Positions 6,060-25,830 of a stretch of 32,000 bases of DNA are shown here, piece after piece. The DNA is taken from the NCBI GenBank assembly GCA_035390665.1, contig DAOOUC010000002.1:60001-92000 (forward strand). The letters run 5' to 3'. Source of the stretch: an archaeon. GTDB taxonomy: Archaea; Iainarchaeota; Iainarchaeia; Iainarchaeales; CSSED10-239. Position 1 is the stretch's first letter, and the number at the start of each line of letters is the position of its first letter. Under the pieces are notes generated by a model. The model ran no database searches, was not told where the DNA came from, and worked only from the letters and a program-made list of their open reading frames with translations. The position numbers and the translations under genes were made by a program.

Positions 6060-6893
6060 ATGAAAATGTTTGATACAATATTTATTATAAGGATTATTTT
6101 ATTATTACTTGCTTGTGGCCTTGCTGCTTATTATGATAATAAGACAGGTTACATCTATGACTGGATAAGTCTTCCATTAATTGCAATTGGTCTAATTATT
6201 AATATTTTTACTTTCTATTGGCTTGATGTCTTGTCAATTCTTTTGATTGCTTTAGTAATCTATATTTTTGGTTATATTGCTTATTATTATGGAAAGATTG
6301 GTGGCGGAGATATTAAATTGTTTATAGGAATACATATGATTCTTCCATATCTTATTGGACAACTATTTATTTTGTGGGTAATTATTGCTTCTTCTCTTTT
6401 ATCTGTGTTGTTTGTTTCAGTAACTTATATAATTAAACTATATGGCAAAATTAAAATTACAAAAGATTTGATAAAAAAAAAGAAATGGAAAATAGTTCAA
6501 TCTATTTTTTTCTTTGTATTCTTTTTAGCATTGTGTTTATATGCTGTTTCAATAGAAGGCCTTCCATCTTTAGTTTATTTAACAATTCCTCCAATGTTTT
6601 TTGGTTGTATTGTTATGATTTTAGAAGATGAGATTAAAGAATATATTTACTTAAGAAGAAAACCAATCTCAAAGCTTGAAGAAGGCGATGTTTTAGCAAT
6701 AGAGTTTTGTAATAAAGAACTATTAAAAGAAACAGGTCTAGAAAAAAGAGCAGTTCTAGAAAAAGAAGACATTGATTTACTTAAGAAATTAAAATATAAA
6801 TCCATTCCTATATATGATTATCTTCCAAGATTTGGAATCTATATTCTTCTTGGAGTAATTTCTATTTTGATTTTTAATATATTCATTATATGA
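6060..6893 (+). CDS. A24-family aspartic prepilin/preflagellin (class III signal) peptidase, FlaK/PibD-like
   Basis: The protein is polytopic. One Asp lies in the first helix region (LAAYYDNKTGYIYD), and the diagnostic GxGD motif is present (KIGGGDIKLF). A ~70-aa soluble segment (RRKPISKLEEGDVLAIEF…) precedes the last TM helix. Confidence 0.75.
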   Translation: MKMFDTIFIIRIILLLLACGLAAYYDNKTGYIYDWISLPLIAIGLIINIFTFYWLDVLSILLIALVIYIFGYIAYYYGKIGGGDIKLFIGIHMILPYLIGQLFILWVIIASSLLSVLFVSVTYIIKLYGKIKITKDLIKKKKWKIVQSIFFFVFFLALCLYAVSIEGLPSLVYLTIPPMFFGCIVMILEDEIKEYIYLRRKPISKLEEGDVLAIEFCNKELLKETGLEKRAVLEKEDIDLLKKLKYKSIPIYDYLPRFGIYILLGVISILIFNIFII

Positions 6894-8032: not shown

Positions 8033-8722
8033 TTAAATCAATCCTTTTTCTCTAAAGCTAAAGGTTTCTTTTTCTGATATTATTATATGATCAAGAAGTT
8101 GTATATCCATTAATTTAGCTGCCTTTTTTAAGATGTCTGTTGCTTGTTTGTCATCCATGGATGGTTCACAGATGCCGCTAGGATGATTATGAGCAATAAT
8201 TATTCCATCTGCTCCTCTTCTCATAGCTTCAAGAACAATGTCTTTGGAAGAGATTAGTGTCTGGTTACTTGTTCCTGTTGTAATTACCTTATAATCAATA
8301 ACATCATTTCTGTGTGTTAAAAAAACAGCAACTAATTTTTCATGTGTTACTCCAAAAAAAACAGGGAATAACAGATTATAAACATCAGTTGGGCAAACAA
8401 TCTTTGTTTTCTCTTCCGGACTTTTAAGTGTTCTAATTTCTTGACTTAAAATTCTTTTAGATATTTCAAAAACAGCTTTAATTTGACAAGCTTTGATTTT
8501 TCCTATTCCTTTTATTTTTTGTAATTCCGTAATAGATACATCGCCAATATCTCTAAGCTGAAATCTTGAAAAAATTTCTTGACAAATATTTAAAACATTA
8601 TTTTCCTTAGTTCCAGTTTTAATAACAAGAGCCAAAAGTTCAGCTTGAGATAAACTTTCTGCTCCAAAAGTCTGTAGTCTTTCAAGTGGTCTATTTTCAA
8701 TTGACATTTCTTTTATTTTCAT
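8033..8722 (-). CDS. radC: RadC-like JAB/MPN domain protein
   Basis: The N-terminal pattern is RPLERL…ELLALVIKTG with the HhH IKGIGKIKA. The C-terminal JAMM motif is IIAHNHPSG…PSMDD. The gene abuts the tgt stop with no spacer in a convergent arrangement. Confidence 0.85.
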   Translation of the reverse strand: MKIKEMSIENRPLERLQTFGAESLSQAELLALVIKTGTKENNVLNICQEIFSRFQLRDIGDVSITELQKIKGIGKIKACQIKAVFEISKRILSQEIRTLKSPEEKTKIVCPTDVYNLLFPVFFGVTHEKLVAVFLTHRNDVIDYKVITTGTSNQTLISSKDIVLEAMRRGADGIIIAHNHPSGICEPSMDDKQATDILKKAAKLMDIQLLDHIIISEKETFSFREKGLI

Positions 8723-8746
8723 AATCGTTTCCTTATATTAGTTGAT

Positions 8747-8983
8747 TTAATTAATATATTCTTGCAGAAACTGGTCGAATTCGACCAGTTTGAAATCAGG
8801 GTTATTTATTTTTTCCCACAATCCTAAAAATCTAATTGTTTCTTTAGATCTAATCCAATTTTTAATAACATCAGCAGGATGGTCGGAATTTTTATATTTT
8901 GCAATATCTGTTAATGATATATAATCGTCTTCATTTTTTGTATAATAAGATATTTTTTTGTTTAAAACACTTATTTCATTCAT
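8747..8983 (-). pseudogene. N-terminal fragment (78 aa) of a KilA-N domain protein, probably a truncated remnant
   Basis: YISLTDIAKYKN…VIKNWIRSKETIRFLGLWEKINNPDFK matches the N-terminal part of bacterial/phage KilA-N proteins as I recall them, which are normally about 250 aa. The frame stops after 78 aa, only 24 nt before radC. Confidence 0.5.
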
Positions 8984-8984
8984 G

Positions 8985-9983
8985 TTAATCTCCTTTGATT
9001 ATCTTTTTTAATTCTTCTTTTGTAGGCAAGAGCTTAATTATTTTTTCAGGAATCTTATATGTAGAAACACCAATTGGTTTATTTGTGTCTCTTAAAGTAT
9101 ATTCTACAATTGTTCTATTCTTGTCTTTACAAATAATTATTCCAATGGATTTATTCTCTCCGTTGATTCTTGCGAGGTCGTCTAGTGCAGAAAGATAAAA
9201 TTGCATTTTACCAACATATTCTGGCTTGAAGTTACCAATCTTAAGATCAATTGCAATTAGGCATCTTAAAGTTCTGTGATAGAGTAAAAGGTCTATAAAA
9301 AATTCGTCTCCACTAATCTCTATTCTATATTGGCTTGCAACAAAACAAAAGTTATTTCCTAATTCTGAAAGTAGATTTTTGATATTTCCAACTAATCCTT
9401 TTTCCAACTCTTTTTCAAGATGTTCTTCTTTTAATTCTAGAAAATCAAAAGTATATTCGTCTTTTACAACAAATTTAGATTGTGCTTTTATTTTAGTAGT
9501 GATTGTTTTATCAAAATTAGTTTGGTTAAGTAAATACTTTTCATAAGTTTGGTTTTCTATTTGGTGTACTAGTACATTCTTTGTCCAGTTGTTAGTTTTT
9601 GTTTGTTTAAGATAAAATTCTTTTTCTTCATCACTTTTACATTTTTCCATAACCCTTAAATTTTTAGTCCAGCTTATTTCTGCAACCAATGGTCGCAGTT
9701 TTGGTTTATTATGATATTCAAAGTAAAATTGGCGCATACTCCACAAATTTCTCTCAGAAAACCCACTAATCCCAGGAAATTCTTTTTGTAAATCCAGAGC
9801 TAACATTTCAATAACTGATTTCCGCCAACCAAGTTGTTTTTGTTTTTCTACAATTCTTTTTCCAATATCCCAATAGAGATTAATCAGTTCTTTATTTACT
9901 GCTCTTAATGCCTCGTACTGCGCAGAAGTAATTCTTTCTTTTATTTCTTTTAAAAAATTTAAATATTCTTTTTGTTTACCCAT
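8985..9983 (-). CDS. DUF1016 / YhcG-family PDDEXK nuclease domain protein
   Basis: There is near full-length resemblance to the family as I recall it: AQYEALRAVNKELINLYWDIGKRIVEKQ, FSERNLWSMRQFY, HQIENQTYEKYLLNQTNFDKT, KDEYTFDFLEL, FIDLLLYHRTLRCLIAIDLKIGNFKPEYVGKMQFYL, KPIGVSTY. Confidence 0.85.
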   Translation of the reverse strand: MGKQKEYLNFLKEIKERITSAQYEALRAVNKELINLYWDIGKRIVEKQKQLGWRKSVIEMLALDLQKEFPGISGFSERNLWSMRQFYFEYHNKPKLRPLVAEISWTKNLRVMEKCKSDEEKEFYLKQTKTNNWTKNVLVHQIENQTYEKYLLNQTNFDKTITTKIKAQSKFVVKDEYTFDFLELKEEHLEKELEKGLVGNIKNLLSELGNNFCFVASQYRIEISGDEFFIDLLLYHRTLRCLIAIDLKIGNFKPEYVGKMQFYLSALDDLARINGENKSIGIIICKDKNRTIVEYTLRDTNKPIGVSTYKIPEKIIKLLPTKEELKKIIKGD

Positions 9984-10169
9984 AGATATATTACTCTATC
10001 AAAACAGGAGTCATTTCCGGGAGGGTAGATGTCCAGTGGGTTGTTTATAAATCTTTGTTGTTTTTTTGAAATTTTACATCGTATTAATCTCAAAATCACA
10101 AAATTGTTTTTCTCGCACTGGACAACTGGTCCCAAAAACTATATATATTCTTTTAATCATAAATCTATT

Positions 10170-11384
10170 ATGAGATACTCACATTCAAGAATTGAAACTT
10201 TTAAAAGTTGTCCAAAGAAGTTCTATTTTCAATATATTGAAAAACCAGAGATAGAAGAAAAGAAAGGAATTGAAGCTTTCTTAGGTTCTATGGTTCATCT
10301 TGCTTTAGAAAAGCTCTATAAAGATTTAAAGTTTACAAAAGTTAATTCTTTAGAAGAAATACTAGATTATTATTCTGAAGAATGGGAAAAGAATTTTGAT
10401 TTAACAATAGAAATTGTAAGAACAGAATATACTCAAGAACACTATAAAGAAATGGGCAAAAGATTTCTAACTGATTATTATAATAAATATAAACCCTTTG
10501 ATCAAGGAAAAACCTTAGGTTTAGAAATGGAAATTAATCTAAGATTCTTGGATAATTTTGGAAATGTTTTTGATTTAATAGGTTACATTGATAGATTAAC
10601 AATGGTAACAGAAGAGTTTTTTGAAATACACGATTATAAAACAAACGCGCACACAAAAACACAAGAAGAAGTTGATAAGGATAATCAACTAGCACTCTAC
10701 ACAATAGCAATAAAAAGAATGTATCCTACAGTTAAAAGAGTAGATCTTGTTTGGCATTTTCTAGAGTCTGGTTTAGAAATGAGATCTACAAGAACAGATA
10801 AGGAATTAGAAACCCTAGAAAAAGAAATAATTGAATCAATAAAAGAAATTGAAAGAAAAACAACAATAAATGATTTTCCAACAAAAGAAAGTGCTTTATG
10901 TGATTGGTGTAGTTATAAAGAATTATGCCCTGCAAAGAATCATCTTTTTATGCTAAAGAAACTACCAGAAAATGAGTATCTAAAAGAAGAAGGAGTAAAG
11001 CTTGTTGAAAGATATCTAGAGTTAACAAAAGAAAAAAAAGAAATTGTAGATAAGATTGATCCAGAGATAGAGAAAGTTAAAGAGGCATTAGTCAATTACT
11101 CAAAAACCCACAATTCGGAAAGGGTCTATGGTCCTTTTGGTAACTCCATTCTTGTTAAAGAATATAGTAATTTTACAATTCCAGAAAAAGGAACAAAAGA
11201 AAGAGAACTTTTTGAGAAGAAATTAAGAGAATCTGGTCTTTGGGAAATAATTGCAGAAGTAAATTCTTTTAATTTTTCTAAAGCAATTTCAGATGGGATA
11301 TTAGAAACAGATTTTTTAAAAACAATAGAGCCACTAATAACTAAAGGAAAAACAACAAGACTTTATCCAAGTTTCAAAAAGTAA
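10170..11384 (+). CDS. PD-(D/E)XK nuclease of the Cas4/RecB/AddB type with a 4-Cys (Fe-S) signature and a C-terminal extension
   Basis: The product starts MRYSHSRIETFKSCPKKFYFQY. Nuclease motifs are GYIDRL, EIHDYKT and QLALY, with the C-terminal cluster CDWCSYKELCP. The ORF-track start at 10029 adds 47 aa of implausible sequence across a GC-rich intergenic repeat, so I trimmed it. Confidence 0.72.
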   Translation: MRYSHSRIETFKSCPKKFYFQYIEKPEIEEKKGIEAFLGSMVHLALEKLYKDLKFTKVNSLEEILDYYSEEWEKNFDLTIEIVRTEYTQEHYKEMGKRFLTDYYNKYKPFDQGKTLGLEMEINLRFLDNFGNVFDLIGYIDRLTMVTEEFFEIHDYKTNAHTKTQEEVDKDNQLALYTIAIKRMYPTVKRVDLVWHFLESGLEMRSTRTDKELETLEKEIIESIKEIERKTTINDFPTKESALCDWCSYKELCPAKNHLFMLKKLPENEYLKEEGVKLVERYLELTKEKKEIVDKIDPEIEKVKEALVNYSKTHNSERVYGPFGNSILVKEYSNFTIPEKGTKERELFEKKLRESGLWEIIAEVNSFNFSKAISDGILETDFLKTIEPLITKGKTTRLYPSFKK

Positions 11385-12619: not shown

Positions 12620-13669
12620 ATGAAACATAAAAATAAAGAATCTGAAGAAGCTATAACAAGCCCACATCATTCTAAGAAAAAATTATTTATTTGGCAAATA
12701 ATTAGTGGAATATTATTTGTTGCATTAGTTATTACAATATTATTAGCCGTTATAAAACCAAATACAGATAATAAACTAGTTAATACAACAGAGACCACTG
12801 AAATAAATCAAAAAATAGTAACAGATACTGTTTCTTTTTTAAAAGATGCTTTTAGTCTTACAGATATAATAGTTAAAGACACAGTAATAGAAGACGGATT
12901 ATATAAAATAACTATATCAATAGAAGATCAAGAAATACCAATATATACAACTCTTTCTGGAGAAAATTTAATAATTCCTGGAATGGGTTTATTAAATAAA
13001 AAAGAAGCATTAGCACAAAAAGAAGAATCAGAAAAACCAGCAGAGGTTCAAAAATCAGATAAACCAAAAGTAGAAGTATTTGTAATGTCTCATTGTCCAT
13101 ACGGTACACAAATGGAAAAGGGATTAATTCCTGTTATTGAAACATTAAATGATAAAGCAGACATAGAAATTAAGTTTGTTGATTATGCAATGCATGGTAA
13201 AACTGAAGTTGATGAAGAATTAAATCAATACTGTATAAACAAAGAAGAACCAGAGAAATATATTCCTTACTTAAAGTGTTTCTTAGAGGAAGGAAAGACT
13301 GCTGATTGTTTAACAAGAGCTGAAATTGATACAACAAAAGTAAATGCTTGTCTTTCACAAACAGACACAGAATATAAAGTTACAGAATTATTTAATGATA
13401 AATCAACTTGGCAAGGCGGACAATTTCCACAATTTAATATTTACAAGGAAGAAAATGAATTATATGGCGTACAAGGCTCTCCAACAACAGTTATTAATGG
13501 TGTAAAAGTAGACAATATGCCAAGAGATTCTGCAGGGATATTAAACCAAGTTTGTTTAGCTTTCAATAATCAACCAGAAGAATGTCAAACAGAATTAAGT
13601 TCAACTGCCCCAAGTGCAGGATTTGGTTATGAAAGCACAGGAACAAATAATGCTGCAAGTTGTAGTTAA
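12620..13669 (+). CDS. Membrane-anchored thioredoxin-fold (DsbA-like) thiol-disulfide oxidoreductase candidate
   Basis: An N-terminal TM helix (LFIWQIISGILFVALVITILLAVI) is followed by a CxxC-type motif in thioredoxin context (VFVMSHCPYGTQMEKG) and a cis-Pro-loop-like GSPTTVING. Confidence 0.55.
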   Translation: MKHKNKESEEAITSPHHSKKKLFIWQIISGILFVALVITILLAVIKPNTDNKLVNTTETTEINQKIVTDTVSFLKDAFSLTDIIVKDTVIEDGLYKITISIEDQEIPIYTTLSGENLIIPGMGLLNKKEALAQKEESEKPAEVQKSDKPKVEVFVMSHCPYGTQMEKGLIPVIETLNDKADIEIKFVDYAMHGKTEVDEELNQYCINKEEPEKYIPYLKCFLEEGKTADCLTRAEIDTTKVNACLSQTDTEYKVTELFNDKSTWQGGQFPQFNIYKEENELYGVQGSPTTVINGVKVDNMPRDSAGILNQVCLAFNNQPEECQTELSSTAPSAGFGYESTGTNNAASCS

Positions 13670-14523: not shown

Positions 14524-17500
14524 TTAATTAGTAAAAGGGTAAGTTAATCCATTTCCATTATTATAAAGCGTTGATATCTCTTCTGGAGTTAGTGTTCTTG
14601 TCCAAATACCAACTTCATCAACAGATCCATTTAAATCATAAGAAGAACTATCTTGCATACGCGCAATTCTTGTAGCAGTAGAATCTAAATTAAGCGAGGT
14701 TCTATTTACAGAGATCTTTTCAATACCATTAACAAATACTCTAATTGCACTTGTTGTGGAATTATAAGTCATAGCAATGTGAGTCCATTCTGCAATAGTA
14801 TTAACTCCTGTTGCCAAATCATATGCATAAAATCCTCCAGAATAAGAATTATTTGCGGTATTACTATTTGCATAATCATATGCTCCGGCGCCACCAATAA
14901 ATCCAATATGTGCTCCAAGATCAGCAGTAGATTTACCAATAGCAACAGCACCTTGTGTAGTATTTGTATTTAATTTAACCCAAGCACTTAATGAAAAATC
15001 AGTATTACCTGTAATTGTATTATTTCCAAGATTGACATAGTCTCCAGCTCCATCAAAGGTATATGCAGTTCCTATTTTTCCTGTTTGATTCTGTAATGTG
15101 TTACCTGCAATTGTTCCATTTCTAAATCCAGTACTATCTAAAACTGAACCAGAAGTTTCATCAAGATTATAATATGATAAAAGTCCAGTAGTAAGATTAC
15201 GATCATTATTAGAAATATTGTAATCTAAATTAACTGTATTAAACATCTTGTTGATGTCTTGATCATCAAATGATCTATTGTATAGTCTGAAATATTTCAT
15301 TGATCCTTTTGTATTTGTTATATCATCTTTTGAAGCAATACTCATTAACCAAGTTTTTGTATCAAAATTAAAGCAATTAAGATTTACAGAAATATCAATA
15401 CAGTTTTCTTTTTTACCATTAATATAATAACACAGATTCTTTCCTTTTCTTTGAATAACAAGATGTGTTGGTTTATCTTGAGAAATAGGCACAACTGAAG
15501 CAAAAGAAAATGGTAAATAACTATATCCAGAGGCATAACCATTATTTTCAGTTAACATATCTGATTTATTTCTTCTAACAACCCTGTTATTTAAGGTATC
15601 TCCAACATATATGTAATCATTATCTACAGAAACACTGGCAGGGTTATAAAAATTTAAATAGCCTTGACCGTAATTTCCAATTTTTCCTATATAAGATAAA
15701 TCTCTTTTATCAAACACCATTATTCTATTATTTGCATAATCTGCAGCATAAAGATAGTTCTCATCTAAAGCAAGTTCATATGGCGCACCATAGACATATT
15801 GATTATAACTTTGTGTAAAATATCTTCCATCAAAATAATTTTGATCATATCCAGTTATCTTTGCAACAACTATATAATCGCTTTTCCTTATTTTTTTAAT
15901 AGAAAAAGACAATGTTTCAGAAACATAAAAATAATTCTCATCAACGGCCACACCGTATGGTCCATAATAACTATTTCCGTGCATTCCATAATCTCTTGCA
16001 ATAAATGATAAATCTGATTTATTGTGTATCTTAATACTTCCAGAAGAATAATCTGCAATAAACAACTCATTTCCAAAAAGATTAATACCGTATGGGCCAT
16101 AAAATTGATTATTTCCCGTACCTGCACTTGTTCCTCCAATACCGCTCACAAACGACAAATCACTGGCTAATAATTTTTTAATTCTATGATAACTTGCATC
16201 TGTAACATAAACGTTTGTCCCATCAGAGGCAACACTATAAGGATTATAGAACTTATCGGTTGTGGCTCCAAGAAGTGGACCACCGAAACGTGCAAGAAAT
16301 GAAAAATCGGTTTTATTTCTTTTTACTACACTATGATTTGCAGTATCTACGACATAAATAGAATTATCATCTACAAAAACCCCTCTTGGATTAAGATATT
16401 GATTTTCTCCAAATGATCTTTCTCCATATGTTCTTAAATAATTAAGATTAGTATCAAGTACTTGTATTCTGTAATTGCCAGTATCAGGAACATATATCTC
16501 TCCATTACAAATACTTAATCTTCCGGGACTATAGAAACTGTTGTTGTCGTTATTATATGTCGTTCCTCCAAGCTTACCAATATATTGGTATGTAAACTTA
16601 TTATATTTAACAATTCTGTGATTAGTATAATCAGAGACATAAATATAATTATCATCGACAGTAATCCCATCAGGATTTCTAAAATAATTTGCGTCTCCTG
16701 TTCCAGAAGTTCCAAACATTGTTACATAAGCATACGGAGAATTTTTATTATGTATTTTGATTCTATTATTTGTATAATCTGCAACATAAATATAATTGTT
16801 ATCTACTGCAACATCTTGTGGACCATTAAAATTTGCAGTTCCTGAGCCAACGGTTCCAAATTGATTAACATAAGATAAATCTGATTTATTATGTATCTTA
16901 ATTCTATTGTTACTGGTATCTGCAACATAAACATAAGTACCATCTACTGCAACACCTCGGGGGTATGTAAAATTTGTGTTTCCAGTACCGGAACCACCAA
17001 TAGCAGTAATTTTAGATAAATCAGATATATTTCTTTTAGTTAGAATGTGTGCTGAATAATCAGTTTGATAAATATAATTTTCATCAACAGCAATTCCTGA
17101 AGGTGTAGAAAAATCATTTGGATAAGTAGGGGATGCAGACAAATATTGTCTTCCATTTACTACTTCTGCAGTTCCCGTAGTTTTATTTAATTTTACTAAT
17201 CTGTTATTAGCGGTGTCTGTAATATAAAGATAATTCGTATCACAAGAAACAGCATTTGGTTGGTTATATTGATTATTATTCATTGCACCGAAGTTATTAT
17301 TGTCATATAGAGCCCCACTAATTAAAACATTTTGATCAATTAAATTTCTGTCATAAACAACAATTCTTCTATTTGCTGTGTCAGTAACATAAATTTTATC
17401 AGGAGAGACAGCAACACCCCAAGGGCCATATAATTCTGAAGGCATATACCCTAATGTTCCAAAAGTTGCCATGTCACTTAAAAAGAAATTATTTTTGTTA

Positions 17501-19947
17501 ATTTTTTTAATTCTATGGTTACCACTTTCTGCAACATATAAATCATTCCCATCTAATGTCATAAGATAAGGAGTATTAAATGCTTCTGTTGTTGTTGTTG
17601 CATAATTCCAGCCATAGTTTGCTACAAAAGAAAGATCTGATTTATTTAATACTTTTATTCTGTGACAACTTGCATCTGTAACATACACATAATTTTCATC
17701 AACAGCAATTCCGGTAGGATAATTAGTTTGTGTAGCACCACATCCATAATTAGTATAATTACTATCTGTGGTTTTTGCAACAAAAGCAAAAGTATTTTTA
17801 TCGTGTTTCTTCACTCTGTGGTTTCTGCCGTCGGTAATATAAATATAATTTTCATCAACAGCAACCCCCCTAGGTAAATAAAATCCTTCATCTGTTGTAG
17901 TACTTGAAGTACCAAAAGCAGTTGAGTAACTTAAATCTGATTTATTTAATCTTAATATTCTTGAATTTCCATAATCCACAACCCAAAGATAATCTCCATC
18001 AACAGTAAGATCATAAGGACTATTAACTCCTGTAGTTCCACTTCCTGCTGCAAGAGATTTTAATCCAAACATAGCAACAGTTTCAAGATTATCTGCTCTT
18101 TTCTTAATAATTCTAGAATTACCGTAATCAGAGATATAAATATATCCATCCTCGTAAGTTATTCCGTATGGAGTTAAAAGATTATCAGGATCAGCAATTC
18201 TTAGATTATATTGATTTTCTGGAAATCTTGAAACAAAATTAAGATTTTCATCTGATTTAATAATTCTGTGATTTGAAGAATCTGCAGTATAAACAAAACC
18301 ATCAGAATCAGCGGCTATAGAAATAGGATAAATAAATCTATTAAAATCGTTTCCAGAAGTGCTTCCACTTGAAGGTCTTATAGATAAAAGTGTCCATGTG
18401 CCTTTTTCATATTTTTTTATTCTGTGGTTTCCATATTCTGCAACATAAAGATAATTATTATCAACATATATTCCAACAGGTGTATTAAAATTAGTTGCAA
18501 CATTATTTGCGGTGCCTGTTGTTCCAAGATGAGTAACATATGTTAGATCATATTTATTTCTTATCATTACACGATGGTTTCCGCCATCTGCAATATATAA
18601 ATAATTATCATCAACATCTATTTCTCTTGGAGTACTTAATTGATCTTGTCCGGCACCAGCAGTATATCCGCCATAATGATTGACATAACTAAAATCATCC
18701 AGTTTTCTTACCATAATTCTATGATTTCCAGAATCAGATATATATAAATTATTGCCGTCTGTTGCAACGCCACGAGGATAACTTAAACCATTTATACTTG
18801 TCGTACTTCTTGCAACACTTAGTTTTCTAACAAATGACAAGTCATCTTTTCTAAATATTTTAATTTGTGCAAGACTGGAAGACCCATAATCAACAACATA
18901 TAAATAATCTCCATAAATTGCAATTTGAAAAGGATTAATAAATTCATAATCTCCTGATGAATTCATAGGAAATCCAATATGCTTAACATAGGAGTAATCT
19001 GATTTATTTAGTTTAATTAATCTAAAAAAAGAATCAATGTAATAGATATAATTATCATCTACATTTATGCTTAAAATTAAATAAGGGATTTCTATTCCTT
19101 GAGCATAAGTGTTTATTATTCTGTTACTATCTATATAGATATCCAGTCCACCAATTCTGGCGGTTTTACTAAAAAGATATCCAGAATAATTATTATCAAT
19201 TAATGTTTCAATTGTAAAGTCATTATTTCCAAGCATTAAATCTTTATCAATTTCTATTTTTGAAGATACCCCGTTAAAATTTGCACCATTACTATCAAAA
19301 GTGATATCTTCTACAATTTGTCTAAATGATTCTGATCCTTGATTAAAGTTATTTCCTTTAGTAAAATCAAAATTTAAAATAAGATTTGAATCATAATTTT
19401 CAACAACAAATAAATTTTCATCAGATTCATTTTCAAAATAATAATTTGGATCTAAGTTAGGGGACATTTTTTCAATATTAATAATAGGTATATTAGTATT
19501 TTCTGAAATAATTAATTTTAATTTTTGATTATTATTTACTATAAGACTCTCATTAAGATCTATAATCCCATTTAAATTTAATTTATATTCAATATCTGTA
19601 TTTTTTTTAGTAATTGTAATATTTTCAAAAATTTGTTCTTTAAATTCTTTAGATTCATTTTTAAGTGGTTGAATTATTGTTATTGTATTTGTAATTGCGT
19701 CAAAATTAATTTCATGATCTGTTTTTATATTTAGGTAAATAAAAGAATTATTAGTTAATCCTTTTAATTCTAAAAATTGTTGATTTATATAAAATAAATT
19801 TTCCTTGTTTTTTCTATAATTTAAAGAATCTGTAAGGTTATTAAAAAAAGGAGAAACTAATGCTAATATACTAATCATAACAACTACAGATAATACTAAA
19901 ATCAGTATGCCGGTAACGAGAGAGGTTGCCCCTTTTTTAGTTTTCAT
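14524..19947 (-). CDS. Giant (1807 aa) pilin-like surface protein: class III signal peptide, a LamG-like domain interrupted by about 24 NHL repeats, and a C-terminal LamG domain
   Basis: The N-terminus is MKTKKG|ATSLVTGILILVLSVVVMISILALV. There are 24 repeats of about 48-50 aa with the NHL signature (e.g. LYISDSGNHRIMVRKLDDFSYV, VYVADTSNNRIKIHNKSDLSYV). The C-terminal LamG reads FSLSAWVKL…WTHIAMTY…VFVNG…GSVDEVGIWTRTLTPEEISTLYNNG. Confidence 0.88.
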   Translation of the reverse strand: MKTKKGATSLVTGILILVLSVVVMISILALVSPFFNNLTDSLNYRKNKENLFYINQQFLELKGLTNNSFIYLNIKTDHEINFDAITNTITIIQPLKNESKEFKEQIFENITITKKNTDIEYKLNLNGIIDLNESLIVNNNQKLKLIISENTNIPIINIEKMSPNLDPNYYFENESDENLFVVENYDSNLILNFDFTKGNNFNQGSESFRQIVEDITFDSNGANFNGVSSKIEIDKDLMLGNNDFTIETLIDNNYSGYLFSKTARIGGLDIYIDSNRIINTYAQGIEIPYLILSINVDDNYIYYIDSFFRLIKLNKSDYSYVKHIGFPMNSSGDYEFINPFQIAIYGDYLYVVDYGSSSLAQIKIFRKDDLSFVRKLSVARSTTSINGLSYPRGVATDGNNLYISDSGNHRIMVRKLDDFSYVNHYGGYTAGAGQDQLSTPREIDVDDNYLYIADGGNHRVMIRNKYDLTYVTHLGTTGTANNVATNFNTPVGIYVDNNYLYVAEYGNHRIKKYEKGTWTLLSIRPSSGSTSGNDFNRFIYPISIAADSDGFVYTADSSNHRIIKSDENLNFVSRFPENQYNLRIADPDNLLTPYGITYEDGYIYISDYGNSRIIKKRADNLETVAMFGLKSLAAGSGTTGVNSPYDLTVDGDYLWVVDYGNSRILRLNKSDLSYSTAFGTSSTTTDEGFYLPRGVAVDENYIYITDGRNHRVKKHDKNTFAFVAKTTDSNYTNYGCGATQTNYPTGIAVDENYVYVTDASCHRIKVLNKSDLSFVANYGWNYATTTTEAFNTPYLMTLDGNDLYVAESGNHRIKKINKNNFFLSDMATFGTLGYMPSELYGPWGVAVSPDKIYVTDTANRRIVVYDRNLIDQNVLISGALYDNNNFGAMNNNQYNQPNAVSCDTNYLYITDTANNRLVKLNKTTGTAEVVNGRQYLSASPTYPNDFSTPSGIAVDENYIYQTDYSAHILTKRNISDLSKITAIGGSGTGNTNFTYPRGVAVDGTYVYVADTSNNRIKIHNKSDLSYVNQFGTVGSGTANFNGPQDVAVDNNYIYVADYTNNRIKIHNKNSPYAYVTMFGTSGTGDANYFRNPDGITVDDNYIYVSDYTNHRIVKYNKFTYQYIGKLGGTTYNNDNNSFYSPGRLSICNGEIYVPDTGNYRIQVLDTNLNYLRTYGERSFGENQYLNPRGVFVDDNSIYVVDTANHSVVKRNKTDFSFLARFGGPLLGATTDKFYNPYSVASDGTNVYVTDASYHRIKKLLASDLSFVSGIGGTSAGTGNNQFYGPYGINLFGNELFIADYSSGSIKIHNKSDLSFIARDYGMHGNSYYGPYGVAVDENYFYVSETLSFSIKKIRKSDYIVVAKITGYDQNYFDGRYFTQSYNQYVYGAPYELALDENYLYAADYANNRIMVFDKRDLSYIGKIGNYGQGYLNFYNPASVSVDNDYIYVGDTLNNRVVRRNKSDMLTENNGYASGYSYLPFSFASVVPISQDKPTHLVIQRKGKNLCYYINGKKENCIDISVNLNCFNFDTKTWLMSIASKDDITNTKGSMKYFRLYNRSFDDQDINKMFNTVNLDYNISNNDRNLTTGLLSYYNLDETSGSVLDSTGFRNGTIAGNTLQNQTGKIGTAYTFDGAGDYVNLGNNTITGNTDFSLSAWVKLNTNTTQGAVAIGKSTADLGAHIGFIGGAGAYDYANSNTANNSYSGGFYAYDLATGVNTIAEWTHIAMTYNSTTSAIRVFVNGIEKISVNRTSLNLDSTATRIARMQDSSSYDLNGSVDEVGIWTRTLTPEEISTLYNNGNGLTYPFTN
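15553..19080 (-). repeat. Coding tandem array of about 24 NHL (beta-propeller blade) repeats, period about 145-150 nt
   Basis: I counted 24 occurrences of the blade signature [GSTA]-N-[HNSR]-R-[IV]-x-[KV]… followed by D-L-S-[YF]-V between residues ~290 and 1465. Neighbouring blades 15 and 16 (about 16740-16940) are still visibly similar at the DNA level. Confidence 0.8.
19852..19947 (-). other. Class III (type IV pilin-like) signal peptide of the 1807-aa protein
   Basis: A short basic N-terminus is followed by KG|A and then a ~25-residue hydrophobic helix. Confidence 0.65.
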
Positions 19948-19996: not shown

Positions 19997-22900
19997 TTAA
20001 GAAAAAGTATAAAAAAGATTAGGAGAATATTGATTTATATATTCTGCATTTTTCCAAGCATCTGATCTTATTGTTTTTTCAACTCTTATTTCATCTACAT
20101 ATCCATCCCAATAATAAGAGGAAGTTCCACAAATGTATGGGAAATCAGTAGTATTTGTCCACACAAAACCATTAGTATCATAAACAATTTCATTATTAAC
20201 AAAAAATTTGCTATTTGTTGGAGAATTTTTGTTAATTGTTAAAACTAATTTTGTCCAATTTGTTGTTGCAGGAGAAGAAGAGGCTGCCTGAACAGTGTCT
20301 CCGATTCCTCTTGACCAAGTAGAGTTAGTTGTTCCAAGATAAATTCTTGCAGCCGCAGGAGTAAAAGAAGAAAAAGGTAGTGCTAATTTTGAAATTATAT
20401 TTGTTTTTGCCCAAAGGCTTACTGTTAATAAATTATTATCGTTTATTTCTGATAAAGATATTGGTGCAATAATATAATCATTAAATCCATCACAAAGTAC
20501 AGAATCACCAAAAAAACCTTCTGTTTTAAATTTAGATTTTGGAGTATTATCAAATAGATAAGGCGTTGCTATTACTTTACCTGTTGAATCTTTCAAACTT
20601 GATTGATTATTTTGAATAATTTCATCATCAAAATGTTCAACATAAAGATAATTTTCGTCCCAAACATCTGTGGAATTGTCTTCAGAAACATCGCTACCAA
20701 AATACATATAGATATTCGTATCTTGTGTTGATGAAAGATTAGGGATCTTTACCCATGCAATCACTCTAGTATTTGTGGTATTTGTTGTGCTATTTGGAGT
20801 AGGTGTCGTAGTATATTCTATCTTTAAACTTTCGGATTTAGAAGTAATTGGAATTGTAGTGGTTGGTATTTTTACTTGATAATTGTTTAAATCATCACTT
20901 GTTGTATTTTCAATTGTAATTGTATAGTTGTCTCCATTATCAATCACATTTACTGTTGGCTCAACAGGAACATATTTTCTTACATAGATATAATCAAATT
21001 CTGTATCTCCTATATCTGTTGCAGCACCACTAAATTGTCCAAGATGAATATAGTTTATATTTCTTGTAAATGTAGTAGTAGAAGGATAACTATAAATTGT
21101 GGAATTGTCCATATTTAAATCAAAGGTATTAGTTTTTGTAATAATATCAAATAAGTAATATTGATCTAAAGTTATTACACTTGCAAAAGAAGTATTTGTG
21201 ACATTGTGACTTCCTGCGGTTCCATTTCCTGCAAAAACATGTAAATTTAGATTGTTTACTCCTTTCATTGTTTCAATTTGCGCTTCTGAGGTTGTATTAC
21301 CGCTTGCAGTAAAAGTTGCTGAAGAAATACCTGGCATTGTTCCACCGTAATTAGCTGTTTGATTTATATTTTTAGAGCGAGATCTAATAATATAATTGTC
21401 TTGTAAATTGATGGATAATGGATTAGTTAAAGTTACAGCACCTACATTAATTCTTAGAGTTTCTCCAGAAGAAACATAAGTTGGTGTAGTTCCATTTGTC
21501 CATTTTCCTAAATCTAATTGTGCAGAAGTAAAATCATCAAAAAAATCAAACACACGGTCCCCATTAGGAATATATCCACTTTCTTTTGTTATTTTTAAAG
21601 TTCTAGTGGTATTAGCTGGAATTGTTTGTTTAATAAAAATAAATTTATTTGTTCCATCGTCTTCAATGTAGTAAGGAATTGTTCTTTCTTCTATAAACCC
21701 AATTGCAGTTAATGGTAGTTCTTCTACTTTTAGACTTTCTGTTTTGGTTGTAATTCCAATAATATTATTAGGTATAGACACCTGGTAATCTGTAAGATTA
21801 TCAGAAGAGCCATTAGTTATAACAATTTCATAAAAATTATCATTATCATAAACATCAACCCAAGGCACTTTATATGCATATTTTCTTACAAAAACATAAT
21901 CCACATACATCTCAGCAGCAGCTGGTTGTGTTCTTAGATTAAAATATCCTGTTTCATTAAAACAACGTTGGGTGTTTGTGGTTAAAAATCCACTATCATT
22001 AACTAGCGCTCCATTATCATCATAAACAACTTGTCTTACCTTATAAGTATTTTCATCAGTAATTGTTGCATCAAAATTTAAATATCTTCCATTTGCTGAA
22101 GATATTGTGCTTGCATATATTGCCGCCGCGCCACAATAATTACTTGCAAAGATTTCATAATTTGTAGTGTTTATATTTGTTCCAAAACCAATCCCTTTAT
22201 TATAAGTATATCCACAGGTTGCGCAATCAGCCATTACATGCATTGCACAATCTAGACTGGATGTGTTTGTTACAGGATACATTCTCATCTTAAATATTTT
22301 ATTATAAGAATTTAATTTATTTTTTGAAACAATATAAGCCGTTGTTCCATTTAAATAAATGTTTTGATCATTTTCTGCAGGTAAAGGAAATCCATTAATA
22401 TATCCCCACTTATTTGGGTCAATAGACCAATCATCAAAATCATCAAAGAATTCAAAAACATAATCTCCATTTGGAGAATATCCCGGAGTCTTTGTAATTT
22501 TTATTTTTCTTGTAGTGTTAGCAGGAATACTTGTTTTTATCCAGATTTTTTTATCTACATTAAGATCTTCAATATAATAATCTATTATTTTTGAATTAGA
22601 GGTTAAAGCTAAACTAGATGGTTTAATTACTTTTTCAATTTCTCTGTCTAATTTATTTCCAAAAGAGTCAATAAAGATTATATCTTTTCCATCATCTTTT
22701 GCTATTAGAAGTTTTAAATCACTTATATCTATTAACATTGGAAAGTTAGTTAAATCTTCAGTAATATAATCTTTGTTTATTGTTATTTTTAATCTATTTG
22801 ACCAATTTGAAGAATACCACGAATTAACTTCATCAATATCGGTGTTTTTATAAATATCAATTGATATCTCATCTAAATCTTCATCATATGCTTGATATTT

Positions 22901-23338
22901 TAAAGCTATTTGATTTTTTCCTAAATTAAACATTATATCTTTACAATTCAATTGTATTCTTTCAAGATTATCTAAATCTTTTTCAAAATAGATTTGATTA
23001 TTTTTCTTATAGGTTACAATATCATTAATTACTGTTTCATCTGTTCTATATTCTCCAGAATAATTAATTTTTCCAATAATCTGGTTATTTGTACAATCTA
23101 TTTCTATTTCTCCGGGATTATAAAAATTAAACTCAGTAGTTTGTTTATTTGAAATTGTGTCATTAAGTGCAAGATTAAATTTATCAAAATAATCAATCAT
23201 AGTTTCATAATTTGCTTTTTCTTTGCTTTTTGAGATAAGATCTATAGCAGAAGTTGTAACCATTGCTATGATTACAAAAGAGATTAATAGATAAGCCATT
23301 GTTGTAATAAGATTTGCTGCACCTTTTTGATTATTCAT
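19997..23338 (-). CDS. Pilin-like surface protein (1113 aa) with DUF2341-like modules, a duplicated ~290-aa ConA-like module and a C-terminal LamG domain
   Basis: The N-terminus is MNNQKG|AANLITTMAYLLISFVIIAMV. The DUF2341-like segment is NWSNRLKITINKDYITEDLTNFPMLIDISD…DGKDIIFIDSFGNKLDREIE. The duplicated segments are YYIED…IPANTTR.(I/L)KITK..GY.PNGD.VF.FFDDF … Y(V/I)(F/Y)VRKY. The C-terminus reads VIAWVKIPNLSSTQDTNIYMYFG…VWDENYLYVEH … DGYVDEIRVEKTIRSDAWKNAEYINQ. Confidence 0.86.
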   Translation of the reverse strand: MNNQKGAANLITTMAYLLISFVIIAMVTTSAIDLISKSKEKANYETMIDYFDKFNLALNDTISNKQTTEFNFYNPGEIEIDCTNNQIIGKINYSGEYRTDETVINDIVTYKKNNQIYFEKDLDNLERIQLNCKDIMFNLGKNQIALKYQAYDEDLDEISIDIYKNTDIDEVNSWYSSNWSNRLKITINKDYITEDLTNFPMLIDISDLKLLIAKDDGKDIIFIDSFGNKLDREIEKVIKPSSLALTSNSKIIDYYIEDLNVDKKIWIKTSIPANTTRKIKITKTPGYSPNGDYVFEFFDDFDDWSIDPNKWGYINGFPLPAENDQNIYLNGTTAYIVSKNKLNSYNKIFKMRMYPVTNTSSLDCAMHVMADCATCGYTYNKGIGFGTNINTTNYEIFASNYCGAAAIYASTISSANGRYLNFDATITDENTYKVRQVVYDDNGALVNDSGFLTTNTQRCFNETGYFNLRTQPAAAEMYVDYVFVRKYAYKVPWVDVYDNDNFYEIVITNGSSDNLTDYQVSIPNNIIGITTKTESLKVEELPLTAIGFIEERTIPYYIEDDGTNKFIFIKQTIPANTTRTLKITKESGYIPNGDRVFDFFDDFTSAQLDLGKWTNGTTPTYVSSGETLRINVGAVTLTNPLSINLQDNYIIRSRSKNINQTANYGGTMPGISSATFTASGNTTSEAQIETMKGVNNLNLHVFAGNGTAGSHNVTNTSFASVITLDQYYLFDIITKTNTFDLNMDNSTIYSYPSTTTFTRNINYIHLGQFSGAATDIGDTEFDYIYVRKYVPVEPTVNVIDNGDNYTITIENTTSDDLNNYQVKIPTTTIPITSKSESLKIEYTTTPTPNSTTNTTNTRVIAWVKIPNLSSTQDTNIYMYFGSDVSEDNSTDVWDENYLYVEHFDDEIIQNNQSSLKDSTGKVIATPYLFDNTPKSKFKTEGFFGDSVLCDGFNDYIIAPISLSEINDNNLLTVSLWAKTNIISKLALPFSSFTPAAARIYLGTTNSTWSRGIGDTVQAASSSPATTNWTKLVLTINKNSPTNSKFFVNNEIVYDTNGFVWTNTTDFPYICGTSSYYWDGYVDEIRVEKTIRSDAWKNAEYINQYSPNLFYTFS
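23249..23338 (-). other. Class III (type IV pilin-like) signal peptide of the 1113-aa protein
   Basis: MNNQKG|AANL is followed by a hydrophobic helix. Confidence 0.6.
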
Positions 23339-25830
23339 GATTTTTCTAAGACTCCGACTTTAATAAATGCTTCAGGAATAGATTGATTATTAAATTCTGT
23401 TTTAATCCAGGAGTCAGATCTTGCAACATCTGATACTTTAAATTCATCAATAATTCCTGAGAATGCAAATGAATCTGCATAACCTAGTCTTAATGGGCTG
23501 GTATTTAATTTTATATTTACGTCTCTGTTTTTTTCTTCTTTTTGTCCATTAACAAAAATATATTCTTTATTTTCATCTATATTGTATCTATAGACAATAT
23601 GTGCAAATTCATTTGTTGGAACACGATTAGAGGAAAATAGGTTGCTTGTTGGTTGATTTTGTATTAAAATTGAACCAGGTCCATTTAACACAAATCGGCC
23701 AAAATTATTATATCTTTCATCTCCAAAAATCAAAGCATAACCTCCATTTGTTTCTCCAGTAAAATTTACCCAAACAGAAATTGTTTGATAATTCCAATCA
23801 TTGTTATATATTGTTCCAAATTCAACATAGTTACTACTTGCTAATGAAGGATAACCTCCGTCTAAAATAATTTTATGTTTGTTTGCTCCTCCAATTTGTC
23901 CATCTGTACTTGTTGTTGAATTAATATTATCAAATCCTTTTGCTATCCCTGTAAAATTATTTTTAGTAGAATCTATAAATCCATTTTCATCATTATTTGG
24001 ACTTTCATTTAGATGTTGTACCATAATAAACCCATCATCCCACACATCTTTGTCATTACTTTCATTTGCAGTTTCATTTCCAAAGTACATATAGATTGCA
24101 GTATCTTCTTCTGTAGTTAACTCAGGAATCTTAACCCAAGCAAATACTTCTGAGTGAGGAGTTAAAATTGTTTCTAATTCTCCAATAGAGTAAAAGTTTT
24201 CAGGAGCTGATTGATTATTGTATTCTGTTTTTATCCAAGATTCTGATCTCGTAATATTTGAGATACGTACTTCGTCTATTGGGCCATTATAATAATATCC
24301 ATCATTTCTTTTTCCAAAGAAAGTTATTCCTATGTTTGTGCCATTAGTTCCAGCAGTAGCTACCCCCAATAAATTTCCATCTATATAGAAATTATAGTCA
24401 TTAGAATTTACTTTTGTTATAGTTAGATATTTCCAGGCATTTTCCTTTGTCCAATTAAGTGTAACATAACCAGCGCTTCCATTATAAACTAAAAAATTAG
24501 TTCCATTATATCTTATACCAGTACCAGACCCCCCTAAAAAATATTGAATGTCAGTAACTGAATTTAAATTTGTCCACAAAGATGCGGTTTGAATAGAGGA
24601 TGTTAGAATTGTTATGTAATCATCTCCAAGATAAGCTTGTGCTTTCCCTATTTTTCCAGTAGTTTCAATAGGATTATTTGCAGATACTTTTGTTCCGATG
24701 TTATTATTCAAAGTACTATCTGCAATTGTTGTACTGTTATAATCGTTACTATGCCACACCCCAACATAATTACTATCCCAAACATTTGTGTCATTTGTGT
24801 TATTTTCCTCTGAGTTTCCAAAATACATGTAGATGTCTGTATTTTCTATTGAAGAAAGACTTGGAATCTTTACCCAAGCAACAAGCGAACCTGTTGTTGA
24901 ATTATAATCTTCTATTTCTCTTTTTAATCTTGTTCCATCACTACTAGTAAAATAAATATCTCTTCCATCACTTTGAGCATAGGTTTTAAGATCAGAATCT
25001 AGTAAAGAAACAAGCATTGGAAAATCTGTTAAGTCTCCATCTACTTTATCTTTGTCAATAGTTATTTTCTTTCTATATTCATAATTTTCTCTTAGAGAAT
25101 AACTTTCAATTTCTCTTTTTAATTTAGTTTTTCCGTCCTTAGAGGTAAAGATAATATCATTTCCATCAGAATTAGCATAATTCTTAAGATCTTGGTCTTC
25201 AAGATATATTAAAGCAGGAAAGTTTGTAAGATTGCCGTCTACTTTGTTTCCATCAATTAATATTTTCTTTCTATATTGCCAAGTGCTTGGAGTTTCATCA
25301 TACAACCCTAAGTTAGAAGCAGTAAACCAGTCATCTTCGATTACATTTTCTAAAAGTATAGTTATTTTATCTTTGTCTGTCTTTCTTAAATAGATTGTTG
25401 CATTAAGTTGATTTTCAAGAATATAAGATCTTACTAAATCAATATTACTTAAAGTAAAACCAGCATATAGTTTTTGTCCATTTCTATAGGTGTATTTCTC
25501 TGAGGTGTCGTCTAGTCTTAAATTATCTTTATAAAAGTCTCCATTAATTATACTATATACTTCAATTGTATTTGTATTTGAATCAATAATTAGAGTTAAG
25601 TTTTCTAAACTTAGTTCAATTTCTTTAGTATAACCAATAGGGCTATTATAAACTTCTTGAATATTATTGTAAAGATTATCTCTTAATCTTTTTGATTCTT
25701 CAAATTTCAGCTGAGATTTACTTGTTGTTATTTGCGGAATTAAAGCAGTTAATATTATTCCAATCACAACTACAGTTATTAGCATTAATAATATCTGACT
25801 AATTATTTCTGAAGTTCCTTTATTATTCAT
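23335..25830 (-). CDS. Pilin-like surface protein (831 aa) with tandem DUF2341-like modules and two LamG domains
   Basis: The N-terminus is MNNKG|TSEIISQILLMLITVVVIGIILTAL. Two tandem copies read (W/Y)(Q/E)YRKKI.ID..KVDG.LT.FP…SDG.DI.FTS.DG…LKREIE. Two LamG ends read IDEVRISNITRSESWIKTEYNNQ and IIDEFKVSDVARSDSWIKTEFNNQ. The stop overlaps the next gene's start in an ATGA at 23335-23338. Confidence 0.86.
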   Translation of the reverse strand: MNNKGTSEIISQILLMLITVVVIGIILTALIPQITTSKSQLKFEESKRLRDNLYNNIQEVYNSPIGYTKEIELSLENLTLIIDSNTNTIEVYSIINGDFYKDNLRLDDTSEKYTYRNGQKLYAGFTLSNIDLVRSYILENQLNATIYLRKTDKDKITILLENVIEDDWFTASNLGLYDETPSTWQYRKKILIDGNKVDGNLTNFPALIYLEDQDLKNYANSDGNDIIFTSKDGKTKLKREIESYSLRENYEYRKKITIDKDKVDGDLTDFPMLVSLLDSDLKTYAQSDGRDIYFTSSDGTRLKREIEDYNSTTGSLVAWVKIPSLSSIENTDIYMYFGNSEENNTNDTNVWDSNYVGVWHSNDYNSTTIADSTLNNNIGTKVSANNPIETTGKIGKAQAYLGDDYITILTSSIQTASLWTNLNSVTDIQYFLGGSGTGIRYNGTNFLVYNGSAGYVTLNWTKENAWKYLTITKVNSNDYNFYIDGNLLGVATAGTNGTNIGITFFGKRNDGYYYNGPIDEVRISNITRSESWIKTEYNNQSAPENFYSIGELETILTPHSEVFAWVKIPELTTEEDTAIYMYFGNETANESNDKDVWDDGFIMVQHLNESPNNDENGFIDSTKNNFTGIAKGFDNINSTTSTDGQIGGANKHKIILDGGYPSLASSNYVEFGTIYNNDWNYQTISVWVNFTGETNGGYALIFGDERYNNFGRFVLNGPGSILIQNQPTSNLFSSNRVPTNEFAHIVYRYNIDENKEYIFVNGQKEEKNRDVNIKLNTSPLRLGYADSFAFSGIIDEFKVSDVARSDSWIKTEFNNQSIPEAFIKVGVLEKS
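25738..25830 (-). other. Class III (type IV pilin-like) signal peptide of the 831-aa protein
   Basis: MNNKG|TSEI is followed by a hydrophobic helix, with Glu at +3 after the predicted cleavage site. Confidence 0.6.

Follow-up and report, generated by a model that had tools for sequence, protein, structure and literature searches.

A LamG domain predicted to be interrupted by 24 NHL blades in a large, pilin-like candidate surface protein of an archaeon

The 1807-aa ORF at positions 14524..19947 (minus strand) of the window, the 32,000-nucleotide stretch of archaeal DNA that was analysed, was assigned with a probability of roughly 85% to a nested-domain surface protein made up of a pilin-like anchor, an N-terminal module, a LamG domain split by an NHL insert, and a second LamG domain (Table 1). 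The split layout itself is real, conserved and rare; its parts, and the way in which they are combined, are of kinds already known. The first-pass annotation of this DNA had described an 1807-aa protein with an NHL array of about 1,180 residues between two LamG halves. The reading frame was unbroken over 5.4 kb, all of the peptides quoted in that annotation were present in the ORF, its length was verified, and approximately 1,187 residues were counted between the halves. The layout of the halves also stood, with the exception of the start of the second half at residue 1490, which was moved to about aa 1470 because one to two strands (GYASGYSYLPFSFASVV) come before PTHLVIQRKG.

Table 1. Features of the 1807-aa protein and of its neighbourhood, in residues of the protein and positions of the window.
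Feature	Residues	Window positions	Strand	Evidence
Type IV pilin-like signal region	aa 1-35	19843..19947	-	Read from sequence
N-terminal module	aa 36-186	19390..19842	-	Common to wider set of pilin-signal proteins
LamG first half (last strand IINTYAQG)	aa 187-282 (~96 aa)	19102..19389	-	hhalign, family conservation, AF2
24 tandem NHL blades	aa 283-1469	15541..19101	-	Blade HMM, Pfam NHL
LamG second half	aa 1470-1573 (~104 aa)	15229..15540	-	Pfam Laminin_G_3, hhalign, AF2
C-terminal complete LamG_3 domain	aa 1586-1807	14527..15192	-	Pfam Laminin_G_3 1-151/151, E 8e-23
Type IV prepilin-like leader peptidase (Peptidase_A24)		6060..6893	+	PF01478, E 6.8e-11, 43 bits vs cut-off 26.5
Gene pair upstream, same direction (831 aa; 1113 aa)		19997..25830	-	Pilin-like N-termini, DUF2341

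In the native protein, the region following the NHL array (C-flank) matched only positions 67-150 of the 151 positions of the Pfam Laminin_G_3 profile (25.4 bits, E 1.8e-5). The half-match started directly after the last NHL blade, and there is no space upstream of the C-flank for the absent first half because that blade ends at aa 1469. A deletion construct was created in silico by joining aa 186-287 to aa 1466-1573. The construct was matched by Laminin_G_3 in a single stretch covering positions 2-150 of 151, and its 29.3 bits exceeded the gathering score (27.6). A match to the whole profile thus needs the reconstituted domain, although addition of the N-terminal half raised the score by only about 4 bits. 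Joined halves from 7 of 11 family members were likewise matched by Laminin_G_3 in one stretch (E<=0.01), and BLASTP aligned the joined halves of the query with the protein's own complete LamG domain colinearly over the junction (E 1e-4).

Searched alone against Pfam, neither the region preceding the array (N-flank) of the query nor the N-terminal halves of the family gave a LamG match. As an 11-sequence profile, the N-flank was aligned by hhalign with columns 50-108 of a profile of 14 unsplit LamG domains, that is, with its first half (score 28.5), and the C-flank was aligned with columns 134-215, in the second half (score 53.0). The joined halves scored 75.1 (97% probability) over 160 colinear columns, so that the two half scores were roughly additive as well as colinear. 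In 150 column shuffles of the N-flank the mean score was 11.9 (sd 2.3, maximum 20.7) and none reached 28.5; the reversed N-flank sequence scored 9.6. An earlier hhalign comparison, against five LamG domains only, was weak (18% probability), and the spliced alignment, used as a profile against PDB sequences, retrieved no significant match. The family alignment was shallow, with 12 sequences for AlphaFold2 (AF2) and an HH-suite Neff of 2.3 on the 11-sequence alignment A1.

AF2 predicted that the deletion construct, with the 12-sequence family alignment, would fold into one compact all-beta domain of about 15 strands (pLDDT 76.5, pTM 0.79). The residue blocks of the first half had pLDDT values of 58-92 and those of the second half reached 94; confidence was low around the splice point (104-111) and in two further loops. 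The unsplit LamG domains of the window were left out of this alignment; when they were included, MAFFT placed the junction region of the query on the first NHL blade. For an initial splice design run as a single sequence, the AF2 model was uninformative (pLDDT 33). Foldseek returned 342 PDB matches for the deletion-construct model at E<=1e-3, the best of which were lectin jelly rolls of the concanavalin A (ConA)-like type from botulinum toxin Hc and T. rangeli sialidase chains; these alignments spanned 200-240 columns, equivalent to the whole query (E ~1e-9, TM 0.6-0.69). The proposal of the first-pass annotation that the two flanks belong to one LamG domain was therefore upheld by all three checks that it had suggested: an orphan half-match that became a nearly complete one on joining, a predicted single jelly roll resembling ConA/LamG-like domains over its full length, and homologues that share the split, alongside unsplit domains that span the junction. 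These data support co-folding of the two halves into one jelly roll, as modelled on an artificial deletion construct.

Alternatively, the flanks could be independent partial beta-sheet caps or extensions of the nearest propellers that never meet, and the LamG likeness of the N-flank a weak convergence. This reading accommodates the silence of Pfam on the N-flank alone and the fact that the AF2 construct placed the flanks side by side artificially, but it was considered very unlikely. The homology of the C-flank is clear and confined to the second half of LamG, and half a jelly roll would leave both sheets incomplete. The N-flank falls on exactly the complementary profile columns with a score well over the shuffle control, the half scores are additive and colinear, the pTM is that of one packed domain, and natural unsplit LamG domains span the junction.

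The same split was found in P0001-P0010, P0133 and locus L002, amounting to at least 12 archaeal (DPANN-like) proteins; bracketing of the array by two LamG halves was examined in P0001-P0010 among the 120 listed proteins. Identity within the family was 25-82% over at least 12 independent assemblies, and 23 columns were invariant across both halves. P0001 was 82% identical over the spliced domain. At approximately 33% identity, P0005 lies in a syntenic locus and is therefore a positional orthologue; the syntenic locus adjoins SpoIIM/PDDEXK/RadC. P0133 (938 aa) carries half the number of blades (~12), with the break at the same profile position, 67, and its two flanking segments lie at about residues 170-265 and 840-925. 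P0002-P0010 end with the second LamG half, and in them a complete chitobiase/hexosaminidase C-terminal (CHB_HEX_C) domain precedes the first; from this context, neither half can be completed from adjacent sequence. Completion of the N-flank by upstream residues was ruled out on the same grounds. The complete C-terminal LamG_3 domain was confined to the query, P0001 and the fragment P0122 and was missing from P0002-P0010 and P0133. In unsplit LamG domains of Bacteroidota, a single HSP ran straight over the junction. Precomputed Pfam lists for the 120 listed proteins showed Laminin_G_3 for P0001 alone, and a literature search found no published description of this split-LamG/NHL architecture.

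This conservation also bears on whether the architecture could be an artefact of chimeric assembly, of a fusion of adjacent genes by sequencing error, or of a decaying pseudogene with a repeat-disrupted LamG domain. The source organism is uncultured and P0121 is a truncated N-terminal variant, as such an origin might lead one to expect. An artefact is nevertheless extremely improbable given an uninterrupted ORF of this length and the identical order of parts, with both halves conserved, in divergent assemblies and at syntenic loci.

When the single spliced query was searched against 1.84 billion representative proteins, 19 relatives were retrieved at E<=1e-3, and the best-scoring stretch was the N-terminal module (aa 36-186) in 17 of them. 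Proteins sharing this module carry differing C-terminal payloads, namely DUF2341 with LamG, fibrinogen-like domains, or an unsplit LamG_3. P0121 (198 aa) is a shortened variant of the N-terminus of the protein.

An HMM built from the protein's own blades detected 24 consecutive NHL blades at aa 293-1469; the first was partial in the HMM, and its start was placed near aa 283 by eye. Blade spacing was 38-56 aa and the largest gap was no more than 25 aa. Pfam NHL (PF01436) matched the 1807-aa protein in 14 stretches (E 5e-88). Blade-to-blade similarity had weak peaks at lags of 6 and 12, and the blade numbers of the query (24) and P0133 (~12) are multiples of 6. In P0008, an additional domain of about 180 aa lies between detected blades 6 and 7. 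The 24 blades would probably form four six-bladed propellers.

The N-terminus (MKTKKG|ATSLVTGILILVLSVVVMISILALV), as read by eye, has a short basic stretch, a KKG|ATS motif and then a hydrophobic helix of about 25 residues, and resembles the class III (type IV pilin-like) signal peptides of archaea. This layout recurred in neighbouring proteins and homologues. No pilin HMM (Pilin_N PF07790, TIGR02537) matched the N-terminus of the query at E<=0.1; P0133 matched Pilin_N (E 4.5e-4, 21.5 bits) under the cut-off of 25.2, and the neighbouring 831-aa protein matched TIGR02537 (E 0.023, 14.2 bits) under the cut-off of 20 and DUF7289 with E 3.5e-4. The 831-aa protein additionally has LamG payloads, and the 831-aa, 1113-aa and 1807-aa genes form a three-gene cluster of predicted displayed proteins. 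The Peptidase_A24 protein encoded in the window is the enzyme expected to process class III signal peptides. No pilus ATPase or platform gene was seen within the 32-kb window. The window also encodes S19e, L31e and eIF-6, and is archaeal. Given a pilin-like N-terminus together with a prepilin peptidase gene in the window, the 1807-aa protein is most likely a displayed adhesin.

The split LamG domain could also be real in a protein that is not a pilus-associated adhesin but an enzyme or scaffold anchored in the membrane or associated with the S-layer; its NHL propellers might, for instance, be of the lactonase or lyase type and act on polysaccharide. Enzymes do exist among NHL and SMP-30 propellers, and weak partial matches to the Arylesterase and ScyF models were obtained. 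These fell far under the cut-offs, however, and reflect generic blade similarity; HMM searches found no catalytic domain in the 1807-aa protein. The CHB_HEX_C domains of the orthologues and a window devoid of pilus assembly genes would suit an enzyme or scaffold, whereas the relatives of the N-terminal module bear lectin-type payloads (LamG, fibrinogen-like). On balance, an enzyme or scaffold was regarded as rather unlikely.

In the nested-domain model, one LamG hairpin, between the strands IINTYAQG and SYLPFSFAS, would be opened to hold the 24 NHL blades. The halves at aa 187-282 and 1470-1573 would fold together, which would oblige blade 24 to end where blade 1 starts. The propeller array would then leave the lectin domain and return to it as a closed loop, held together at its base by that domain, which may serve as a scaffold presenting the propellers, as the first-pass annotation had proposed. 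We infer both this closed geometry and the count of six blades per propeller. The protein would be anchored by its N-terminal helix or, once cleaved by the prepilin peptidase, would become part of a pilus-like filament; displayed in this way on the surface, it would likely bind multivalently and adhere to a partner cell or polymer surface. Further, the split LamG domain may act as a clasp that ties the first and last blades of the four-propeller array into a closed and rigid multivalent head on a type IV pilin-like stalk, with which a small lineage of DPANN-type archaea attaches to host cells, and modular variation may tune specificity. The variable parts would then be the 12 or 24 blades, the additional inter-propeller domain and the exchanged terminal lectins. 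This extension of the model is tentative and was thought doubtful.

For annotation, these results indicate that two half-domain matches flanking a long array of repeats can be parts of a single discontinuous domain. Here, Pfam gives only a sub-threshold half-match to Laminin_G_3, and public names ('LamG-like jellyroll fold domain-containing', 'chitobiase C-terminal domain-containing') omit the split. A host of about 200 aa carrying a multi-propeller guest of about 1,190 aa is an extreme domain insertion, and the layout constrains the arrangement of the propellers because both ends of the insert must meet. The proteins constitute a rare, syntenic family of large predicted displayed proteins in small-genome archaea, for which cell-cell attachment is thought to be central to their lifestyle. 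If the split LamG domain does act as a clasp, the family would be a class of archaeal adhesin not described before, and would rank among the largest natural domain insertions known.

Several known systems share single features with the query. Tandem NHL surface proteins from bacteria and archaea (e.g. P0011-P0120) and the NHL domains of teneurin and TRIM proteins belong to the same blade family; the arrays of P0011-P0120 are flanked by complete domains (PKD, RHS, SLH and others), unlike that of the query. In bacteria, beta-propellers occur in adhesins associated with type IV pili (PilY1/PilC), and minor pilins with large payloads are also known. The idea of a propeller adhesin displayed by type IV pilus machinery is common to PilY1/PilC and the query, for which such display is putative and which has a pilin-like N-terminus and a prepilin peptidase gene in the window; the propellers of the query are of the NHL type with 24 blades in total, and the likeness is not based on a sequence relationship. 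TafC, the tip subunit of haloarchaeal Tat-fimbriae, is Tat-exported, is assembled by donor-strand exchange and carries a LamG domain that faces outward and is proposed to have an adhesive role (PMC11821415). It thus offers a precedent for such a domain on an archaeal surface filament, but unlike the query it lacks propellers, a split domain and a class III signal. The C-terminal LamG domain of the query weakly matched the TafC model (NF052521) in the LamG part only (E 1.8e-8, 33.9 bits, cut-off 410).

ConA-like and LamG domains are usually carbohydrate- or protein-binding modules of secreted proteins. The split domain has the same predicted fold as Laminin_G_3 (PF13385)/ConA-like jelly rolls such as the trypanosomal sialidase lectin and clostridial neurotoxin HcN, and matches the same profile once its halves are joined. 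Ordinary Laminin_G_3 members are contiguous, including the protein's own C-terminal LamG domain and those of its neighbours, whereas the query domain is interrupted by the whole NHL array. Nested domains are known in the split PH domains of syntrophin and PLC-gamma, in the I-domain within the integrin alpha beta-propeller, and in the lectin or beta-prism domains inserted into the propellers of V. cholerae sialidase, Bap1 and RbmC. In these, likewise, a domain is interrupted at a surface loop by a complete domain, the termini of which must be close. The known cases carry one small guest; that of the query is unusually large, probably comprising four propellers. In the sialidase, Bap1, RbmC and integrin, moreover, the propeller is the host, and in the query the relation is reversed, with the lectin as host and the propellers as guest.

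The interval 15238-19335, in which the first-pass annotation had noted a 24-blade NHL array apparently inserted within a LamG domain, corresponds to aa 205-1570 of an ORF encoding 1807 aa. Pfam analysis of the encoded protein identified NHL repeats (E 5e-88) and two stretches of Laminin_G_3, the better of which was the complete C-terminal domain at aa 1632-1792. The blade count was right: an HMM made from the protein's own blades identified 24 in unbroken series at aa 293-1469, with all gaps between neighbors ≤25 aa; blade 1 was incomplete in this search and by eye starts near aa 283. Blade-to-blade similarity was slightly raised at lags 6 and 12, and in the relative P0008 an additional unannotated domain of ~180 aa (aa 727-910) separated detected blades 6 and 7 of the array. 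The two observations fit six-bladed units without proving them; the additional domain would constitute a second level of nesting and may mark where one propeller ends and another begins.

The sequence following the array (C-flank, aa 1465-1585) matched only positions 67-150 of the 151-position Laminin_G_3 profile when analyzed alone (25.4 bits, E 1.8e-5), and positions 1-66 could not come from the sequence directly upstream, which is occupied up to aa 1469 by the final NHL blade. The distant homologue P0133 gave the identical half-match (aa 840-924, profile 67-148), and the break at profile position 67 is therefore a property of the family.

The sequence preceding the array (N-flank) gave no LamG match in Pfam, either as aa 170-295 alone or in nine homologous N-flanks. 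Joining aa 186-287 to aa 1466-1573, by contrast with the native half-match at 67-150, produced a single Laminin_G_3 stretch that covered profile positions 2-150 of 151 and exceeded the gathering score (29.3 against 27.6 bits); 7 of 11 family members gave such a single-stretch match when joined (E≤0.01). A joined construct also aligned by BLASTP with the protein's own complete LamG in one colinear alignment spanning the junction (E 1e-4). For hhalign comparisons, 14 unsplit LamG domains, some encoded in the window and others present in retrieved proteins, were combined into one profile. The N-flank profile scored 28.5 on its columns 50-108 and the C-flank profile 53.0 on columns 134-215; the joined profile scored 75.1 over columns 50-215 (97% probability, 160 columns). 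The N-flank score exceeded those of 150 column shuffles (11.9 ± 2.3, maximum 20.7) and of the reversed flank (9.6); by these profile alignments the N-flank therefore resembles, significantly though weakly, exactly the part of LamG that is missing from the C-flank.

The split was conserved in homologues. A full-length search returned P0001, a protein of equal length and 77% identity annotated as 'LamG-like jellyroll fold domain-containing protein [archaeon]', and P0002-P0010 (31-33% identical, 1550-1897 aa), one of which is annotated as Candidatus Diapherotrites. All ten share the order pilin-like N-terminus, N-module, 0-2 CHB_HEX_C, LamG first half, ~24 NHL blades and LamG second half. In P0002-P0010 a complete CHB_HEX_C domain precedes the first half and the C-terminus directly follows the second, and neither half can therefore borrow adjacent sequence. 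Both halves were well conserved, with 23 invariant columns across them in the family alignment. The loci of P0001 and P0005 are syntenic with the window, with SpoIIM, PDDEXK_1, RadC and a downstream gene of 184 or 191 aa in common, making them positional orthologues. When the N-module plus joined LamG was searched exhaustively with HMMER against 1.84 billion representatives, just 19 proteins reached E≤1e-3. One of these, P0133 (938 aa), contained the same LamG split with only ~12 blades between the halves, and P0122 was the C-terminal fragment of an orthologue; the remaining matches had the N-module alone in common and carried DUF2341 plus LamG, fibrinogen-like or unsplit LamG_3 (P0131) payloads. 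Scanning a single genome for each species added two further archaeal MAG loci, and in the archaeal MAG locus L002 the LamG halves lay 3.4 kb apart. A database entry, P0121 (198 aa; homologous to aa 1-184), matches the target's first ~180 residues at 97% identity, continues with 18 unrelated residues to a stop, and probably represents an assembly variant of the target gene with a frameshift or truncation.

An unsplit counterpart bridged the junction. The Bacteroidota LamG at locus L004 aligned with the spliced query in a single HSP at positions 34-161, its sequence '...LLMELAEGGTPGYNVV...' lining up with '...IINTYAQGIE' and 'TENNGYASGY...' on the two sides of the junction. The strands flanking the junction, at 94-103 and 112-120 of the spliced construct, correspond to a hairpin in unsplit LamGs.

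Without an alignment, AF2 modeling of a spliced construct was uninformative (pLDDT 33). With a 12-row alignment of the spliced query, full-length P0001-P0010 and P0133, in which the query row was verified as correctly aligned to both LamG halves, the mean pLDDT was 76.5 and the pTM 0.79, and all five models were within 73-76.5. The predicted structure contained ~15 strands and a C-terminal helix, and confidence dropped under 50 in three places alone: residues 20-23, the splice loop at 104-111, and residues 174-180. Foldseek returned 342 PDB matches at E≤1e-3, the best being clostridial neurotoxin receptor-binding domains and Trypanosoma rangeli sialidase, with query-normalized TM-scores of 0.6-0.69 for the top matches over 200-240 alignment columns, the whole construct. 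The matched parts of these chains are their ConA-like lectin jelly-roll domains.

The analysis confirms the observation of a LamG domain split around an NHL array and supports its interpretation as a nested architecture in which the array would be inserted within the LamG domain. Domain insertion is a known phenomenon, LamG and NHL are common modules, and lectin domains inserted into propellers are already known. No description of propellers placed inside a LamG domain was found in the literature. The guest, comprising several propellers and ~1,190 aa, is of unusual size, and members of the family are rare.

Features of the target gene and its neighborhood
Feature	Position	Strand	Remarks
Peptidase_A24, type IV prepilin-like leader peptidase	6060-6893	+	HMM match
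RadC-like JAB	8033-8722	-	
YhcG/DUF1016 PDDEXK nuclease	8985-9983	-	
PD-(D/E)XK/Cas4-like nuclease	10029-11384	+	
349-aa protein	12620-13669	+	N-terminal transmembrane segment, weak GILT/thioredoxin-like match
Target ORF	14524-19947	-	1807 aa
1113-aa neighbor	19997-23338	-	Pilin-like start, DUF2341
831-aa neighbor	23335-25830	-	Pilin-like start, DUF2341, LamG payloads

The window has a G+C content of ~28% and contains the archaeal markers S19e, L31e (ribosomal proteins), eIF-6 and prefoldin. Upstream of the target gene and co-directional with it are the genes for the 1113-aa and 831-aa proteins, which contain two or three DUF2341 repeats; the latter has two Laminin_G_3 stretches in Pfam, and the former a C-terminal LamG-like domain found by a local profile and missed by Pfam. 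A 4-nt overlap between the end of one gene and the beginning of the next suggests an operon. The genes for FtsY and SRP54 (2855-4345 and 4627-6054) immediately precede that for Peptidase_A24, which lies ~7.6 kb from this three-gene cluster with pilin-like N-termini. At the syntenic locus L008, the region matching 8033-11384 also contains AbiEii, Fic, KilA-N and Schlafen-AlbA genes, and this segment beside the putative adhesin gene may represent a variable island of defence or mobile genes. At the syntenic locus L001, the 349-aa protein is conserved, with the SpoIIM-like gene beside it.

The N-terminus of the target, MKTKKG followed by ATSLVTGILILVLSVVVMISILALV, is typical of archaeal class III (type IV pilin-like) signal peptides; matches to pilin N-terminus HMMs were sub-threshold and occurred only in relatives. 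The ~170-aa N-module (pilin-like signal plus beta-rich domain) recurs in P0124, P0128, P0130, P0131, P0134, P0136 and P0137 ahead of varied C-terminal payloads (CHB_HEX_C, DUF2341, LamG, fibrinogen-like); the pattern resembles a cassette system through which these archaea would display binding proteins. HMM searches of the target for a catalytic domain found none, and matches to enzyme families were far below cut-offs and reflected generic blade similarity. We infer that the target is a displayed adhesin, in which the propeller array, clasped by the two LamG halves, would form the binding head, with a second LamG at the end. The C-terminal LamG weakly matched a model of TafC, the tip subunit of haloarchaeal Tat-fimbriae, whose own LamG domain faces outward and is proposed to be adhesive (PMC11821415).
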